A stretch of DNA of 64,000 nucleotides. Origin: Sedimenticolaceae bacterium. Its GTDB lineage: Bacteria; Pseudomonadota; Gammaproteobacteria; Chromatiales; Chromatiaceae. The DNA is taken from NCBI GenBank assembly GCA_050288625.1, contig JBNKEE010000046.1, positions 5,145 through 69,144 of the forward strand. The letters are read 5' to 3'. The position numbers and the translations under genes are program-made. Below are positions 5,032 through 63,175 of the stretch, one piece after another (position 1 is the stretch's first letter; every line of letters begins with the position of its first letter). The notes beneath the pieces were generated by a model. The model was not told where the DNA came from. It made no database searches and saw nothing but the letters and a program-made list of their open reading frames with translations.

Positions 5032-6375
5032 TTGAGTAGAAGATATTTTGGTACTGATGGCATTCGCGGACGAGTGGGTGAAGGCAAGATCACCCCGGAA
5101 TTTGTCTTGAAGCTGGGCTGGGCCACCGGGCGCGTATTCGGCCAGCATGCAGGCAGCAAGGTGCTGATCGGCAAGGACACCAGGATATCCGGCTATATGC
5201 TGGAGTCTGCCTTGGAAGCGGGACTTGCGGCAGCAGGAGTGGATACCCACCTGTTGGGGCCGATGCCGACCCCCGCCATCGCCTACCTGACGCGCACCCT
5301 GCATGCCCAGGCTGGAATAGTGATCAGCGCCTCCCACAACCCTCACTACGATAACGGTATCAAGTTTTTCTCCGCCGAGGGTAAAAAGCTACCGGATGAT
5401 GTTGAAATATCGATAGAGCAGGAGCTAGATCAGGAGATGACCACGGTCGAGTCCGGGCTACTGGGAAAGGCCTTCCGTGTAACGGATGCGGCCGGTCGCT
5501 ATATAGAGTTTTGTAAGGGCGCGACATCCTGGGAGACCAGCTTTAAGGGCATGAAGATCGTGGTGGACTGTGCCAATGGTGCCACCTATCACATCGCACC
5601 ATACGTATTTGAGGAGCTGGGCGCCGAGGTCATGGCCATAGGCGACAAACCAGATGGTCTGAACATCAACGCCGGGGTAGGTTCCACCTACATAGATAAT
5701 CTGCAAAAAGAGGTGATCGCCAACGGTGCTGATCTGGGCGTGGCCTTGGACGGCGATGGTGATAGGGTGATTATGGTGGACGGTGATGGCAATGTGGTAG
5801 ATGGGGATGACATCCTCTACATCATTGCCCAGGCCAGGCAAAATTGTGGCGGGCTGGTCGGTTCTGTCGTGGGCACCGTTATGACTAATCTGGGGTTGGA
5901 ACACGCCCTGGCCGATCTGGGTATAGGTCTGGAGCGGGTCCAGGTGGGCGACCGCCATATCATGGAGAGATTGGAGGCAGAGGGCTGGGTCCTGGGAGGG
6001 GAGCCTTCAGGGCATATCATCTGTCTGGATAGGACCACGACCGGCGACGGTATCGTCTCCGCGCTACAGGTGCTTTCTGAGGTGGTGCGTTCTGGGAAAA
6101 GTCTGAGTGATCTGCGCAAGCCAGTGATCAAATACCCACAAGAGCTTGTCAACGTACGTCTGGAGAATGGCGTGGATGTTATGGGCTCTGTCCTTATGCA
6201 AGAGGCGGTACGAGATGCGGAGTCAGAGCTATCAGACCGGGGGCGGGTTCTGTTGCGGCCATCAGGCACCGAGCCGCTGATCCGGGTGATGGTGGAGGGT
6301 AGTGACCAGGGTCAGGTGAAGCAGCTCTCAGAGAGGCTGGCTGAGGTGGCCAGGGGGCTGGTCAACGCGGGTTAG
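5032..6375 (+). CDS. glmM: phosphoglucosamine mutase
   Basis: 447 aa. YFGTDGIRG start, phosphoserine loop SASHNP, DGDGDR metal loop, GGEPSGH. Confidence 0.95.
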
Positions 6376-7349: not shown

Positions 7350-8258
7350 TCAGCTGTTGCGTGAAACAATATAGTCCGCCAGCCAGCGTAGGTGGTCTGC
7401 CTTGTCATCAAAGACGTCCAAGCTCTCAATGGACTCTAGGTGTAGCTGGTTGAGCAGATCGCGCGCGCCCTGCAATCCGAGTAGCGATGGGTATGTAGGC
7501 TTGTTGTTGGCCTGGTCCTTGCCTTTTGTCTTACCTAGGGTCTCGGTATCTCCTTCAATATCTAGGATGTCGTCCTTCACCTGAAAGGCCAATCCTATGC
7601 GTTTGGCATATTGGTCTAGACCAGAGATCTGATCTGGAGTTGCATCTGGTGCAGCTAGATATCCCATGCGGACAGATGCCAAGATCAGGGCTCCGGTCTT
7701 GTGTATGTGCATATTTTCCAATTCTATCAGGGTCAGCTCTTTTCCCACCGAATCCAGGTCCATCGCCTGTCCACCTGCCATCCCCCTGGAGCCGCTGGCG
7801 ATTGCCAGGTTATCCAACATCTGCGTACGAGCTTGAATGTCTACCTCCATACTTTGATCCTGGCACAGCACCTTAAATGCAAGTGTTTGCAGGGCGTCGC
7901 CAGTCAGGATGGCCGTTGCTTCATCAAATCTTTTGTGACATGTGGGTTGACCGCGTCTTAGATCGTCGTCGTCCATGGACGGGAGGTCGTCATGCACCAG
8001 GGAGTATGCATGTATCAGCTCCACTGCGCAGGCCGGTCCATTTAAGTGATCCAGATCGACCCCCAAAGCTTGACCGGTGGCATACACCAGTACCGGGCGT
8101 ACACGTTTGCCACCGCTCAGCACCGCATAGCGCATGGCTCGATGAAGTCTATGGGGTAAGGTGTCTTCTGAAGGTAGCCACTGCTGGAGGGCGCGCTCCA
8201 CCCGAGATTGGGATGCGACTAGGAACCTGCTCAGGTCTTGTTCATTATTGGTCTTCAA
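7350..8258 (-). CDS. ispA: (2E,6E)-farnesyl diphosphate synthase
   Basis: 302 aa. First DDxxD motif [17 protein letters not shown] and second FQVKDDILD. Overlaps the xseB stop by 14 nt (xseB-ispA operon). Confidence 0.9.
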
Positions 8259-8481
8259 ACGGCTCTGGCTCGGCGTCTGGATTGTTCTCTGTGAGGATCT
8301 GTATCTTCTGCTCCGCCTCTTTTAGCGCTTGTTGGCATGTGCGGGTAAGTAGCACGCCCCGTTCGAAGGATTTCAGGGACTCTTCCAACGATAGTTCGCC
8401 CTGTTCCATGGTTTCCACCAGGGATTCCAGTTCGGCCAGGGCCTGCTCAAAAGATGGCGTTTTTTTTGATACTTTGGGCAC
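8245..8481 (-). CDS. xseB: exodeoxyribonuclease VII small subunit
   Basis: 78 aa. [27 protein letters not shown]...C pattern of XseB. Position upstream of ispA. Confidence 0.85.
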
Positions 8482-8611
8482 GTTGATTACCTTTCTGCTT
8501 TGGAGGGATAAAACTACCCTGATGCGTGGCCAGGGTCAATCTCCGGTTCGCTTGATTGATGCGCTAGGTGTAAACTCTACGGGTTTTAGTAGCAGATGGT
8601 ATTTATCCAGC

Positions 8612-10501
8612 ATGAGCAACAGTTCCTACGATGCATCAGCGATTGAAGTCCTGAGCGGTCTTGAGCCGGTACGCAAGCGTCCCGGTATGTATACAGACAC
8701 TAGTCGTCCCAATCACATGGCCCAGGAGGTGATTGATAACAGTGTGGACGAGGCAGTGGCCGGTTATGCCACTACCATAGATGTATCCCTATATAAGGAT
8801 GGATCTCTGGAGGTGACTGATGATGGCAGGGGGATGCCGGTTGACCTACATCCGCAGGAGGGCAAGCCGGGGGTAGAGGTGATCCTGACCAAGCTGCATG
8901 CCGGTGGCAAGTTCTCTAATAAGAACTACCGTTTCTCAGGTGGTCTGCACGGTGTTGGTGTATCAGTGGTAAACGCCCTGTCTGAACATCTGGAGGTGTG
9001 GGTGAAGCGCGGAGGTCAGCAGTACAATATGGCCTTTGCCGGTGGCGAAAAAGTGTCAGATCTGGAGGTGGTAGACAAGGTAGGAAAAAGCAACACCGGG
9101 ACCACAGTACGGTTCTGGCCAGATCCACAATATTTTGACTCCGCTAAGTTTTCCAAACGCCACCTGCTGCATCTGCTGCGGGCCAAAGCTGTACTATGTC
9201 CTGGACTGTTGGTGCGTTTTTGGGAGGAGGCGACTGGAGAGGATGCGGAGTGGATTTATGAAGATGGCCTAAAGGACTATCTATTGGATGAGTTGCAGTC
9301 TGTGCCTATATTGCCGGATGAGCCGTTTATCGGTTCCATGTCAGGTAACAACGAAGCGGCAGATTGGGCTGTTGCATGGCTACCTGAGGGTGGAGACGCC
9401 ATAACAGAGAGCTATGTCAACCTAATCCCTACGGCCCAGGGCGGCACACATGTGAATGGACTGCGCACCGGTCTTACTGACGCGGTGCGAGAATTCTGTG
9501 AATTTCGCAATTTGTTGCCGCGCGGCGTTAAGCTGGCCCCGGACGATGTGTGGAACCGTTGCAGTTATATCCTGTCAGTTAAACTGGCAGACCCTCAGTT
9601 TTCCGGTCAAACCAAGGAACGGTTGTCATCCCGCGAATGCGCGGCCTTTGTAACCGGCGTGGTGAAAGATGCCTTTGGTCTATGGTTGAATCAGCACACA
9701 GAGATCGGCGAGGCCATTGCCGATCTTGCCATAACATCGGCCCAGGCCAGATTGCGTTCCGGACGCAAGGTTCAACGCAAGAAGGTGACTCAGGGCCCAG
9801 CTCTACCAGGGAAACTGGCGGATTGCACCCTGGCCGATCCGGAACGTAGCGAGTTGTTTCTGGTGGAGGGAGACTCGGCGGGAGGTTCTGCCAAGCAGGC
9901 ACGAGATCGCGAGTTTCAGGCGGTGATGCCGCTTAGAGGTAAGATCCTGAATACTTGGGAAGTGGATTCCTCTGAAGTGCTGGCATCCCAGGAGGTGCAC
10001 GATATATCGGTGGCGATAGGGGTAGAGCCGGGTTCGGATGATATTTCCGGCCTGCGCTTCAATAAGATCTGTATCCTGGCGGACGCCGATTCGGACGGGG
10101 CGCATATTGCAACCCTGTTGTGTGCCTTGTTTCTAAGGCACTTCCGCAAACTGGTGCGAGAGGGGCATGTCTACGTAGCCATGCCGCCGCTCTATCGCAT
10201 AGATGTGGGCAAACAGGTGTTTTACGCCTTGGACGATGGTGAAAAACAGGGCGTGCTGGATCGCATTGAGGCGGAGAAGATCAAGGGCAAGGTGAGTGTG
10301 CAGAGATTCAAAGGTCTGGGTGAGATGAATCCCATGCAGCTGCGGGAGACCACTATCCTGCCGGATACTAGAAGACTGGTGCAGTTGACGGTGGGGGCTG
10401 CGGATAATACCAACAGCGTGGTGGATATGTTGTTGGCAAAAAAGCGTGCGCCAGATCGTAAAGAGTGGCTGCAGAAGAAGGGCGACCTGGCAGAGGTCTA
10501 G
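8612..10501 (+). CDS. parE: DNA topoisomerase IV subunit B
   Basis: About 630 aa from the ATG at 8612 (MSNSSYDASAIEVLSGLEPVRKRPGMYTD...). Near-colinear with E. coli ParE, including LHAGGKFS, EGDSAGGSAKQARDR, ILADADSDGAHI and KGLGEMNP. The track ORF starting at 7877 is an upstream read-through of the frame. Confidence 0.95.
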   Translation: MSNSSYDASAIEVLSGLEPVRKRPGMYTDTSRPNHMAQEVIDNSVDEAVAGYATTIDVSLYKDGSLEVTDDGRGMPVDLHPQEGKPGVEVILTKLHAGGKFSNKNYRFSGGLHGVGVSVVNALSEHLEVWVKRGGQQYNMAFAGGEKVSDLEVVDKVGKSNTGTTVRFWPDPQYFDSAKFSKRHLLHLLRAKAVLCPGLLVRFWEEATGEDAEWIYEDGLKDYLLDELQSVPILPDEPFIGSMSGNNEAADWAVAWLPEGGDAITESYVNLIPTAQGGTHVNGLRTGLTDAVREFCEFRNLLPRGVKLAPDDVWNRCSYILSVKLADPQFSGQTKERLSSRECAAFVTGVVKDAFGLWLNQHTEIGEAIADLAITSAQARLRSGRKVQRKKVTQGPALPGKLADCTLADPERSELFLVEGDSAGGSAKQARDREFQAVMPLRGKILNTWEVDSSEVLASQEVHDISVAIGVEPGSDDISGLRFNKICILADADSDGAHIATLLCALFLRHFRKLVREGHVYVAMPPLYRIDVGKQVFYALDDGEKQGVLDRIEAEKIKGKVSVQRFKGLGEMNPMQLRETTILPDTRRLVQLTVGAADNTNSVVDMLLAKKRAPDRKEWLQKKGDLAEV

Positions 10502-59864: not shown

Positions 59865-60058
59865 AAACTATATCGACAGCCAAGAAGAAACATTAGGAAA
59901 GTGCTTTATCAAGTGAGGTTGGGCTGATATTCTGCAAAATAGTAAGGATAACTAAAAAGACAGGATGCATTTCTCACAAAGTAACTAATCATTAGCTAAT
60001 CTATAGGGAATTGATGCGTTCGTTAAAAGTGGCGCATTTGTTTTTAATGATCGGGAAG

Positions 60059-62593
60059 ATGACTAAATTGAGAAAGATAAATGCGTCCCCTTTTTCTGTT
60101 GTGACGCTCTTTGTGGCGTCTATAGTGACGGTCATGACGGCCGTGGCTGCCACAAGACAGGTGCGTTACGAGACAGCGCCGCGTGAGGCCGGTGAGCCGA
60201 TCATGGCGATCGTATCGATCAAGTCGCAACAGGTCACGTTCTACGACGCCAAAGGCTGGATTCTGCGCGCACCGGTGTCGACCGGTATTCGGGGACGTGA
60301 GACCCCGGCCGGTATCTTTGCTGTACTTGAGAAGGAGAAAGTGCACTACTCCAGCATGTATGACGATGCGGAGATGCCTAACATGCAGCGCATCACTTGG
60401 AATGGCATCGCGCTGCACGGCGGACCACTGCCCGGATATGCGGCCTCTCACGGTTGTATTCGAATGCCATTCGGCTTTGCGGCGAATGTGTTCAACAAGA
60501 CTCGGATCGGTATGCGGGTGATCATTTCGCCGCATGATGTTGCCCCAATCGACATTTTTCACCCGACTCTATTTTCATCGGATGCCGAGGTGGTAGCAGC
60601 TGCTCCAGAGCGAGCGCTAACACTCAAGCGCCAGGCGAAAGAGGCTGCCAAGTCATTCTTAGAAGCAAAGAAAAACGCCAAATCCATGGCGCGTAAGGTG
60701 GTATTACAGAAGCGGTCACTACGCGGGTTGGAACGGCGCAAGAAAAGAGCTGACGCCGTACTCAGAAGCGCCGACAAGGCGCTTTCCACCGCGGATAAAA
60801 CCAAGGTGCGGGCATATGAGCGGCTACAAAAGGCCACCTCAGAAGCCACACAAGCGGCAGCGCAGCTCGCCGCTGCCAAATCAGCCTTGGAGGAGAAGCT
60901 TTCCGCCGTTGCTGTTACAGCATCAGCTGCAAATGACGCCACTCAGAGGAGCGAAGAAGCCAAGAAAGTAGAAAGCAGTGCGGTAAGCGAGGTGGCGTTA
61001 GGCAAGGAGACTCTAGGTAAACTGGAAAGTCTCAAGGAGAGCGCAGACGCAGAACTTAAATTGGCTGACATTGCGCTTTCCACCGCAGATGAAGCCAAGG
61101 CGCAGGCCGAGGAGCAGTTGCGAATGGCTCGCACCGAAACCGCAGAGTTGGCGACACAGATCCAGGCCGCTAAATCAGATTTGAAGGGGAAAGTCGTTGC
61201 CTCTGAGGTTGCGGCAGCATCTGCAAATGATGCCGCCCAGAGAAGCGATGAAGCCAAGAGAATCGAGATGAGTGCGGTACGCATGGTGGAGTTACGCAAG
61301 GCGACGCTACACGAACTGGAAAGTCTCAAGGAGAGAGCAGCCGATGCCACAGAACTGGCGACGCAGATTGAGACTGTCGAATCAGACTTGAGGACGAGAA
61401 TGGTTGCCGCAGCCGTTGTTGCTAAAATTGCAAATGAAGCCACAAAGAGGAGCGATGAGACCAAGAGAGTCGCGAGCAGTGCGGCGCACGAGATGGCGTT
61501 AGGCAAGGAGGCGCTTGGGAAACTGGAAAGTCTCAAGAAGATAGCCGACGCAGAACTTAGAAACGCTGAGGAGGCATTATCCTCAGCGGATAAGGCCAAG
61601 GCGCAGGCCGAGAAGCAGCTGCGTAAGGCTACTGCCGAGACAACGGAATTGGCGATGCAGGTCGAGATAGCTGAATCGGATTTAAAGGTCATGGTCGCTG
61701 CAGCTGAAGCTGCAGCCTCAGCTGCAAATGACGCTGCTCAGAGGAGGGACGAAGCCAAGAGAGTTGAGAAGAGTGCGACGCGCGAGGCGGAGTTACAAAA
61801 GGGTGTTCTACGTAAACAGGAAGGTCTTAAGAAACGGGTCGACTCCGAACTCAGACGCGCAGACAAGGCGTTCTTACTCGCAGATGAGGCCAAGGTGCGG
61901 GCTGAGGAACGGTTGCGTAAAGCGACCGCCGAAGCTGCAGAGTTGGCGATGCAGATTGACACCGCTGAATCAGACTTGCAGGCGAGAGTTGCTGCGGCTG
62001 CTACTGCAAAGGATGCGGTCAAAACGGCCAAGATTAGGAAGGCTGAGGCTGTCCAGGCCGCATACGACGCCAAGCTTGCACTAGAGCCGGTATCCGTATA
62101 CATCAGTCGCGCGACACAGAAACTTTACGTGCGGCGTAACACACATAAGCCGGCCATTGACGGGGGCGGTGAGGAGTTCGATGCGAGCATAGAGGTCCCG
62201 GTTACCATTTATGATCCTGACAAACCGATCGGCACCCATATATTCACGGCCATGGAACATAATGATGCAGGTCTGCGCTGGACAGCGGTTACCATCGATA
62301 ACGGAGAAGATGCCAGGAGGGCGCTTGACCGCATCACTATCCCGCAGGAAGTGTTCGATCGTGTCGCGCTGACCGCATTGCCGAGATCCTCAATCATTAT
62401 CTCGGACGAGCCTTTGAGCAGGGAAACCAACTATCGCACCGAGTTTGTCGCTGTGCTCAGCAATCAGCCGCAGGGTGGCTTTATTACTCGCAAAGTGACC
62501 CAGAATCGTGATGCAGAAGATGATGATACAGATGAGATTGATACAGAAGAGAGTGATTATGTTTTGAAAACACCTGGCTTTTTAGGCCTCTAA
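60059..62593 (+). CDS. L,D-transpeptidase (YkuD) with long repetitive coiled-coil and Cys-less C-terminal domain
   Basis: N-terminal TM/signal anchor. YkuD domain with catalytic HGG....SHGCIRM (Cys codon 60455-60457). About 460 aa of Ala/Glu/Lys-rich repeats, a C-terminal globular domain and an acidic tail. ATG 60059 has a GGGAAG SD; the ORF is open from 60011. Confidence 0.8.
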   Translation: MTKLRKINASPFSVVTLFVASIVTVMTAVAATRQVRYETAPREAGEPIMAIVSIKSQQVTFYDAKGWILRAPVSTGIRGRETPAGIFAVLEKEKVHYSSMYDDAEMPNMQRITWNGIALHGGPLPGYAASHGCIRMPFGFAANVFNKTRIGMRVIISPHDVAPIDIFHPTLFSSDAEVVAAAPERALTLKRQAKEAAKSFLEAKKNAKSMARKVVLQKRSLRGLERRKKRADAVLRSADKALSTADKTKVRAYERLQKATSEATQAAAQLAAAKSALEEKLSAVAVTASAANDATQRSEEAKKVESSAVSEVALGKETLGKLESLKESADAELKLADIALSTADEAKAQAEEQLRMARTETAELATQIQAAKSDLKGKVVASEVAAASANDAAQRSDEAKRIEMSAVRMVELRKATLHELESLKERAADATELATQIETVESDLRTRMVAAAVVAKIANEATKRSDETKRVASSAAHEMALGKEALGKLESLKKIADAELRNAEEALSSADKAKAQAEKQLRKATAETTELAMQVEIAESDLKVMVAAAEAAASAANDAAQRRDEAKRVEKSATREAELQKGVLRKQEGLKKRVDSELRRADKAFLLADEAKVRAEERLRKATAEAAELAMQIDTAESDLQARVAAAATAKDAVKTAKIRKAEAVQAAYDAKLALEPVSVYISRATQKLYVRRNTHKPAIDGGGEEFDASIEVPVTIYDPDKPIGTHIFTAMEHNDAGLRWTAVTIDNGEDARRALDRITIPQEVFDRVALTALPRSSIIISDEPLSRETNYRTEFVAVLSNQPQGGFITRKVTQNRDAEDDDTDEIDTEESDYVLKTPGFLGL
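60716..62086 (+). repeat. in-frame tandem coding repeats, 294-bp (98-aa) period, five units (third unit carries an 87-bp in-frame deletion)
   Basis: Equivalent anchor codons (L/Q of the L-E-S/R-L-K motif) occur at 60728, 61022, 61316, 61523 and 61817, giving spacings of 294, 294, 207 and 294 bp. Identical DNA blocks such as CTGGAAAGTCTCAAG recur at 61022, 61316 and 61523. Confidence 0.85.
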
Positions 62594-62665
62594 CTGTCCA
62601 GTATTCAAGACATTAAGATTTATGATCTATTAGAAAAATATCTACAGTATTATAAAGAAGGAAAA

Positions 62666-63175
62666 ATGAGAGTCGCATTTATTTGTTTATTGATAATCTC
62701 GACTGCATGCGCGGAAAATGTGCCCTATCGTTTCTTTAAACCAAAAGCAGGGTTACTAATTAATACCCTTAATGAAGCGGAATTGGAGGCAGATCCAAAA
62801 GCCAGAATGATTTTGCGAACCGGCAGAGAGATGACGTTGGATGAAAAGGCTGTCGTCATAGGTGGATGCTGGGATTATGTTGATGCTGTCTATTCCAGAG
62901 CTGGATTTCCTAGAGATAAAAGAAGAGTAGTCTTTAAAGGAACTCTACAAAACGGGCCATATGCCAATAAAGATATGTTGCAGCCAGGGGATTGGCTTTA
63001 CCATATTAACCATTCCTATAACGATATCGAGCACAGTGGAATATTTATCAAATGGCTTGATAAGGAGAATGTTATCGGACTTCTTTTGAGCTACCGAGGA
63101 GAAAAGAGCAATACGCCGGCTCGATACAGAGGCTATGATCTTTCAAATGTCTATACGATAACAAGAGCAAAATAA
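62666..63175 (+). CDS. secreted NlpC/P60-like (papain-fold) putative cell-wall peptidase
   Basis: 169 aa. Signal peptide (LLIISTACA). Candidate catalytic Cys in GGCWDYVDAVY and His in IEHSGIF, in the order and spacing of NlpC/P60-type amidases. Motif-level assignment only. Confidence 0.45.
   Translation: MRVAFICLLIISTACAENVPYRFFKPKAGLLINTLNEAELEADPKARMILRTGREMTLDEKAVVIGGCWDYVDAVYSRAGFPRDKRRVVFKGTLQNGPYANKDMLQPGDWLYHINHSYNDIEHSGIFIKWLDKENVIGLLLSYRGEKSNTPARYRGYDLSNVYTITRAK

Follow-up and report, generated by a model that had tools for sequence, protein, structure and literature searches.

A predicted L,D-transpeptidase with a five-unit helical linker and a degenerate second YkuD-like domain in a Sedimenticolaceae genome

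In a 64,000-nucleotide (nt) stretch of DNA from a Sedimenticolaceae bacterium (hereafter the window; assembly GCA_050288625.1, contig JBNKEE010000046.1, positions 5,145 to 69,144 of the forward strand), an open frame of 860 codons at 60011..62593 on the + strand encodes an 860-amino-acid (aa) L,D-transpeptidase of the NF009120/PRK12472 family. The protein is made up of four parts, i.e., an export segment, a complete YkuD domain, an Ala/Glu/Lys-rich helix of about 500 residues and a C-terminal domain of 138 aa (the C-domain). From its sequence the gene appears intact, and its product is predicted to be a secreted enzyme that cross-links the cell wall. As a whole, the protein is probably best explained as an exported and predicted-active L,D-transpeptidase of the PRK12472/PRK06132 type, in which an active and a degenerate YkuD domain are joined by a folded-back stalk. 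The contribution of the window itself is modest, being a stable five-unit expansion in a Sedimenticolaceae metagenome-assembled genome (MAG), possibly following lateral acquisition, and what is of greater interest in the family is that it combines an active YkuD domain with a dead one.

L,D-transpeptidases influence how the wall is cross-linked, how the outer membrane is tethered and how well cells tolerate beta-lactams, and the specificity of their paralogues is largely unexplained. The locus points to a large family, catalogued and unstudied, in which an active YkuD domain is paired with a dead copy that is the more conserved of the two, and in which the helical linker has been lengthened independently in several lineages. 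An earlier interpretation of this DNA, made without database searches (the sequence-only reading), had singled out the gene for its repeats and its second, dead domain.

Catalytic domain and export segment

YkuD is the single domain that Pfam reports for the whole protein (PF03734, aa 66-172, 60206..60526, +), with an E-value of 3.5e-17 and 63.8 bits against a gathering cut-off of 23.4. The catalytic motif LHGG...SHGCIRM is complete, with His136 at 60416-60418 and Ser146-His147-Gly148-Cys149 at 60446-60457 (Cys149 itself at 60455-60457), all on the + strand, and SHGC aligns residue for residue with that of M. tuberculosis LdtMt1. His136 and the SHGC residues are invariant in an alignment of the family (A2), and Cys149 is the sole Cys of the protein. 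The sequence-only reading was therefore right both that the domain is a normal one carrying SHGCIRM and that no Cys follows residue 149. Judged on sequence, this is an ordinary YkuD domain, and its intact His/Cys motif suggests that it is catalytically competent. The source genome carries seven YkuD genes, and the C-domain is present in 60011-62593 alone.

The N-terminus runs from a Lys/Arg stretch into a hydrophobic segment of 20 residues (aa 28-47, FSVVTLFVASIVTVMTAVAA then TRQ; 60092..60151, +, read from the sequence) and on to Ala-x-Ala-like sites, a pattern that recurs in orthologues. It has no lipobox Cys, and is predicted to be either a Sec signal peptide or a signal anchor. The start codon is uncertain, the candidates being TTG at 60011, ATG at 60014 (with AGGGA 5 nt upstream) and ATG at 60059, which would begin the protein with MTKLRK and is the start called in some orthologues.

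Repeat units and shape of the linker

The linker opens with a helical segment that precedes the repeats (aa 191-239, 60581..60727), delimited by AlphaFold and heptad analysis, and continues with five units, all on the + strand. Units 1 (aa 240-337, 60728..61021), 2 (aa 338-435, 61022..61315) and 4 (aa 505-602, 61523..61816), found by both a repeat search and a hidden Markov model (HMM) of the unit, each span 98 aa, or 14 heptads. The unit HMM also placed unit 3 (aa 436-504, 61316..61522), which has 69 aa and is 29 aa short near its start, and unit 5 (aa 603-689, 61817..62077), whose 87 aa run into the C-domain and which is the unit common to the window protein and the one-unit members of the family. 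The anchors at 60728, 61022, 61316, 61523 and 61817 are all in frame, the repeat search returned start-to-start spacings of 294/207/294 and 501/294 nt, and the unit HMM found exactly five units in the protein. These spacings and the HMM bear out the five in-frame 98-aa repeats described earlier, with a third unit shorter by 87 bp; the 29 aa (87 nt) are present in the other units, and also in P0004, P0006 and P0007, orthologues whose third unit is of full length. The units arose by tandem duplication. Identity between them is 40-63% at the amino acid level and 50-72% in in-register DNA, and Tandem Repeats Finder reported nothing with a 294-nt period because the copies are too diverged.

Hydrophobicity along the linker (aa 190-689) is strongly periodic, with a Fourier peak at 3.48 residues and a power of 2.72, where 200 shuffles reached 1.53 at most. 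Since 98 aa are exactly 14 heptads, the heptad register continues from unit to unit. Ala occupies 71% of heptad position 1 (55 heptads), i.e., it stands at every seventh position in the manner of an Alacoil, and Leu, Ile, Val, Met or Phe occupy 50% of position 5. Pro is absent from residues 200-690, and what few Gly there are lie mostly near unit borders. Ala at every seventh position is, as Gernert et al. are said to have described in 1995, typical of tight antiparallel packing (the Alacoil).

A full-length AlphaFold monomer (predicted local distance difference test, pLDDT, 70.6), which is unsuited to judging inter-domain contacts as its YkuD domain scores only 30-60, models the linker as helices at residues 191-295, 311-441, 445-571 and 590-688, which are 99-131 aa long and score 85-93. 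The loops at 296-310 and 572-589 lie at equal distances on either side of a central break at 442-444, and this break coincides with both the junction of the unit-3 deletion and the midpoint of the linker (438.5 in P0001 numbering). The deletion junction lies at the midpoint in P0002, P0003 and P0008 as well as in P0001, and the sole linker prolines of P0004, P0005 and P0006 are no more than 17 residues from it. We favour a linker that doubles back as an antiparallel stalk of the Alacoil type, so that both globular domains would lie at the same end, and propose that the deletion junction forms the tip of the hairpin. The alanines at every seventh residue, the fixed length of the linker in Bradyrhizobium and the adjacent domains of coil-less relatives all favour such a stalk, whose length would be about 37 nm with a single hairpin and about 18 nm with two folds. 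As had been pointed out from the sequence, a fully extended helix of this length would exceed the width of the periplasm.

An extended form is nevertheless the alternative to which we give most weight, unlikely as we hold it to be. Here the linker would form a homo-oligomeric coiled coil with parallel strands, about 74 nm long, that parts the catalytic from the degenerate domain. Lying in the sacculus plane, such a rod would bridge wall sites far from each other or serve as a ruler between them. A strong heptad register that runs unbroken for about 500 residues, in a sequence nearly devoid of Gly and Pro, is what such a rod would have, a conserved unstructured tail could serve as its inter-subunit element, and a relative of 1968 aa with about 20 units is hard to imagine as a single compact bundle. 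However, the reported preference of heptad-spaced Ala for antiparallel packing argues against parallel strands, the coil-less PRK06132 relatives have their two domains side by side, and a deletion or a Pro loop sits at the midpoint of the linker with the AlphaFold breaks placed symmetrically about it.

The degenerate C-terminal domain

The C-domain (aa 690-827, 62078..62491, +), delimited by profile, AlphaFold and Foldseek, starts with ...LEPVSVYISRATQKLYVRRN, as the earlier interpretation had it, and contains no Cys. Searched directly, it matches nothing in Pfam (E<=10) or among PDB sequences; the PDB sequence search with the domain alone and with its profile (A1) returned just low-complexity coil noise and weak matches to uL14. 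Its likeness to YkuD appears at the level of structure and of profiles. An AlphaFold model of residues 670-840, built on a 51-row alignment (pLDDT 83), is rich in beta strands, with strands and helices in the order of YkuD. When this model was compared with the PDB using Foldseek, ranks 1-6 all had the YkuD fold, and the leading matches were LdtMt1 (E 0.012, probability 0.97), M. abscessus Ldt2, Pgp2, DpaA, LdtMt3, Csd6 and LdtGo. Profile comparison with hhalign, using alignments diversified by 21 distant family members and significant solely after their addition, paired the C-domain with YkuD at a probability of 81.5% (P 1.1e-5), along 109 columns that extend across the two domains from end to end; a reversed control gave P 0.28. 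In this alignment the structural Trp, Gly and Pro and a final 'IIIS' strand coincide, His136 pairs with Asp763 (62297-62299, +) and Cys149 pairs with Arg774 (62330-62332, +). The earlier suggestion of a catalytically dead YkuD-like end domain is thus upheld by the profile alignment, the Foldseek ranking and the Arg at the position of the catalytic Cys. At the profile level the active and degenerate domains are significantly similar, and an origin of the latter by internal duplication, as against convergence or separate acquisition, would account for this.

The C-domain is the most strongly conserved and constrained part of the protein. Its identity is 87-95% within the window clade and 84-86% to Bradyrhizobium, compared with 77-88% and 78-80% for the YkuD domain. 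Arg774 is kept in 178 of 179 sequences, including 20 of the 21 distant ones; Asp763 is not kept in the distant members. Conservation exceeding that of the catalytic domain, together with several polar residues invariant across the 179 sequences, would also be expected of an enzyme in its own right, and the C-domain might be alive with a different chemistry via His743, Arg774, Ser793/794, Ser798 and Asp799. We regard this as improbable. The YkuD active-site position holds Arg and no nucleophile, the residue equivalent to the catalytic His varies in distant members, and similarity to any other enzyme family is absent in Pfam, NCBIfam and PDB sequences.

The C-domain includes the conserved segment SDEPLSRETNYRTEFVAVLSNQPQGGFITR, which received no confident model, and the strongly conserved segment with which the domain continues, SDEPLS.ETNYRTEFVAVLSNQPQGGFITR, is of low confidence in both AlphaFold models and may contact something outside its own chain. 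The protein ends in an acidic, poorly conserved tail (aa 828-860, 62492..62590, +) that holds a 15-nt tandem repeat. The tail of the window clade ends in …FLGL; alphaproteobacterial members (P0108, P0125-P0128, P0238-P0268 etc.) have a Gly/Tyr/Arg-rich tail with a final Trp or Phe (…GSWW, …RSWW, …FSWW). Some family members (P0074, P0082) are labelled 'ribosomal protein L14' by JGI, a mislabel that is probably explained by the weak likeness to uL14, to which profile A1 has chance-level matches (E 0.6-1.8).

Age and stability of the repeat array

The sequence-only reading had offered spectrin-like hairpins as a fold for the repeats. A unit of 98 aa is close to the 106-aa spectrin repeat, and the clustering of Gly near unit borders would suit a series of three-helix bundles. 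However, Pfam has no match to the coil at E<=10, the heptad register is continuous and lacks breaks at intervals of about 30 residues, the AlphaFold helices of 99-131 residues cross unit borders, and the related expansion in a Chromatiales MAG (L003) is built from units of 76/80 aa. We therefore hold spectrin-like bundles to be highly improbable; the heptad pattern, the midpoint deletion and the AlphaFold breaks favour a folded-back antiparallel stalk over them.

The same reading had taken identical blocks of 15-18 nt as a sign of duplication and recombination in situ, with potential for variation in length between strains. Blocks of 14-18 nt are indeed present, but as a recombination signal they do not stand. 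The longest in-register exact runs between units are 9-18 nt (e.g., 18 nt between units 2 and 4), and in simulations at the observed identities runs of such length occurred in 8-38% of trials; block lengths within chance give no evidence of recent exchange between units. In a tree of the units of eight five-unit proteins, units 1, 3 and 5 each form one clade and units 2 and 4 are intermixed. Grouping by position implies that the array predates the divergence of these proteins, which today differ by 25-38% overall. The five-unit count has been retained over synonymous distances (dS) of 0.5-0.9 to the nearest relatives, and the ratio of non-synonymous to synonymous change (dN/dS) is 0.28 in the repeat units, 0.09-0.11 in the YkuD domain and 0.05 in the C-domain. 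The repeats are under purifying selection, and the array is old and stable, neither recent nor hypervariable.

Although the source genome is a MAG of 62 contigs, an assembly artefact or hypervariable contingency locus behind the five-unit array is very unlikely, to the point of being negligible, because DNA identity among units is just 50-72% with a longest exact run of 18 nt, far under assembler k-mers, so that unit divergence all but rules out collapse or expansion in assembly, because five units in identical order recur in eight independently assembled relatives (the same array is seen in P0002-P0008, L001 and L002), and because selection acts on the units.

The family and its linker lengths

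Against NCBIfam NF009120 (PRK12472, 'hypothetical protein', 508 positions) the protein scores 806.5 bits, with a cut-off of 369. The match falls into four stretches because the coil unit is repeated; the N-terminal match lies at model positions 14-299, and the last 171 residues alone reach 282 bits on positions 319-473. A word-index search found more than 6,892 homologues, mostly of 490-640 aa and from Bradyrhizobium, Xanthobacteraceae and metagenomes, and with the C-domain alone as query an exhaustive search retrieved 1,516 cluster representatives. Ordinary L,D-transpeptidases had been said to lack such a region. This is true of the enzymes that have been studied, but not of the family at large, as more than 6,800 proteins share the plan of YkuD, coil and C-domain. 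Likewise, the region does belong to a catalogued family, the condition under which the sequence-only reading would have given way, but NF009120 has no assigned role. A literature search on coiled-coil, degenerate or inactive YkuD, PRK12472, PRK06132 and NF009120 returned nothing relevant. The basic design is therefore common but unstudied, and the length of the stalk alone is special to the window protein.

When the unit HMM was run over the best 120 of the more than 6,892 homologues, 57 proteins had one unit, 45 had two, six had three and three had four, while ten had five (the window clade P0001-P0008, the query and the irregular P0009). The distance from YkuD to C-domain is 135-138 residues in 30 of 30 named alphaproteobacterial loci, which have one unit. 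It rises to 499 in the window and in L001, 524 in L002 (L001 and L002 being Sedimenticolaceae MAGs) and 1615 in the Chromatiales MAG. Among distant carriers of the C-domain, from Hyphomicrobiales and Sedimenticolaceae genomes, all 21 examined have an N-terminal YkuD domain, with linkers of about 40-340 residues.

The Chromatiales protein (L003, JANQEV010000054, 5962-11868, +) has 1968 aa and about 20 units, in which lengths of 76 and 80 aa alternate and every other unit border carries a Pro. With its different unit borders, this array is an independent expansion. A paralogue of 705 aa (P0021) directly adjoins the gene on the same contig. In a Xanthobacteraceae MAG (L016), a coil-less gene of the PRK06132 type (5215-6264) and a PRK12472-type gene (7778-9382, 534 aa) lie about 1.5 kb apart, both on the + strand, so that the coil-less and coiled forms coexist in one genome.

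The closest relatives of the window protein come from Sedimenticolaceae MAGs. Within that family, the NF009120 cut-off was exceeded in three of 81 genera (frames of 865, 663 and 591 aa), the coil-less type was found in five further genomes, and a genome of the same genus as the window does not have the gene. Of 151 genomes from the order of Bradyrhizobium, 26 carry the C-domain; it was found in none of 200 alphaproteobacterial genomes drawn evenly across the class and in none of 200 other gammaproteobacterial families sampled. This patchy distribution is compatible with lateral acquisition. When a tree was built from the two globular domains, Bradyrhizobium and the gammaproteobacterial sequences were separated by only about 0.3 substitutions per site, which would fit lateral transfer between the classes in either direction.

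Comparison with known systems

The nearest named counterparts are NF009120 proteins such as that of Bradyrhizobium canariense (SDT06649.1 / WP_146688672.1; P0108), which have the same order of parts, with a C-domain 84-86% and a YkuD domain 78-80% identical to those of the window protein. They differ in having a linker of 135-138 aa with one unit, compared with 499 aa and five units in the window, and a Gly/Tyr/Arg-rich tail ending in Trp where that of the window is acidic. Proteins of NF004785/PRK06132 (e.g., L016 5215-6264, 349 aa) carry the same YkuD subfamily followed by the same degenerate C-domain, but the coiled-coil insert is absent and the C-domain is far more diverged (31-46% identity).

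Csd6 and Pgp2 (4XZZ, 6XJ6) are YkuD enzymes with dimerisation and C-terminal modules and are structural neighbours of the C-domain model; their extra C-terminal domain, however, is NTF2-like rather than YkuD-like, and they have no long coiled coil. Ala-rich helical spacers of defined length are found in the periplasm in Lpp (Braun lipoprotein) and in domain II of TolA. Unlike the linker described here, these are not fused to enzyme domains, and Lpp is itself a substrate of L,D-transpeptidases. In EnvC, a degenerate LytM domain stands beside a periplasmic coiled coil. The analogy with EnvC, NlpD and DipM (for DipM, PMC10336132) is one of function only, in that a dead wall-enzyme fold acts as a binding or regulatory module. 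They have the LytM fold instead of YkuD, the enzyme under the control of the dead domain is a separate protein and not part of the same chain, and in the window protein Pfam finds YkuD alone, with no match to LytM (Peptidase_M23).

LdtMt1 (4JMN/5E51), Ldtfm (1ZAT, E. faecium), B. subtilis YkuD, E. coli LdtA-E and YcbB all share the His...SHGC catalytic domain. The accessory modules of characterised L,D-transpeptidases are Ig-like, LysM, PG_binding_1 or scaffold modules according to a review (PMC12729407), and those in the review and in an Agrobacterium study (PMC11527210) also include lipoprotein and small C-terminal ones; neither a coiled-coil stalk nor a second dead YkuD domain is described in these two sources. 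Liberibacter LdtP was considered as a precedent for two YkuD domains and rejected, being an unrelated enzyme of the YcbB type.

Proposed mechanism

In the explanation that we prefer, the hairpin stalk would bring the degenerate domain back next to its catalytic counterpart, an arrangement that the coil-less PRK06132 relatives have. The degenerate domain may then be a non-catalytic module that binds either a peptidoglycan stem or an acceptor protein and so guides or gates the active one, and the stalk may be a tolerated and selectable spacer or an oligomerisation element. Its length would have been expanded in the gammaproteobacterial lineage after lateral acquisition.

Several points weigh against this explanation. 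The hairpin rests on a monomer AlphaFold run with a predicted template-modelling score (pTM) of 0.44 and a poorly modelled YkuD domain (pLDDT 30-60), and AlphaFold is prone to folding long single helices back on themselves. The midpoint coincidence would arise by chance in about 6% of cases, and the sole proline of P0007, about 57 residues off the midpoint, is a poor fit. As the conserved tail behind the degenerate domain is unstructured in both AlphaFold models, docking within the molecule is not predicted. The Foldseek E-values are weak (best 0.012) and the template-modelling (TM) scores are only 0.33-0.38, lowered by the flanking helix and disordered tail of the C-domain model. The first hhalign runs, with shallow alignments (Neff, the number of effective sequences, 2.2), were not significant (P 0.17-0.3). 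Finally, no conserved neighbouring gene suggests a partner, none being found across 31 Bradyrhizobium-type loci, and our literature search found no biochemical data on any member of the NF009120 family.

A bolder form of the same idea, speculative and rather unlikely as a whole, is that these proteins make up a class of L,D-transpeptidases guided by a pseudo-enzyme, in which the Arg-bearing dead YkuD domain captures the stem or acceptor and presents it to the live one, and the stalk is an evolvable arm. An antiparallel Alacoil arm of one to about twenty units would then set the site in the envelope, or the partner, of the YkuD pair. If this were true, guidance by a pseudo-enzyme would be a previously undescribed route to substrate or site specificity in L,D-transpeptidation. 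If the dead domain does bind a substrate or partner, it would be to YkuD what the degenerate LytM regulators are to LytM, and would offer a testable handle on specificity in Bradyrhizobium, which has 21 of these enzymes according to the Agrobacterium study (PMC11527210).

Neighbouring gene and flanks

An open reading frame of 169 aa, whose N-terminus resembles a signal sequence, begins 72 nt past the end of the L,D-transpeptidase gene (62666-63175, +). There is no conserved operon, and this frame is the sole conserved neighbour, syntenic in L001 and L002 only at 70-77% identity. Pfam has no match to it at E<=0.1, nor does any PDB sequence match it meaningfully. The genes upstream of the window locus are not common to L001 or L002. 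The intergenic flanks at 59865-60010 and 62594-62665 have a guanine plus cytosine content of about 39-40%, compared with about 55% in the gene and its neighbours, and these flanks, together with the unshared upstream genes, are compatible with an inserted gene pair.

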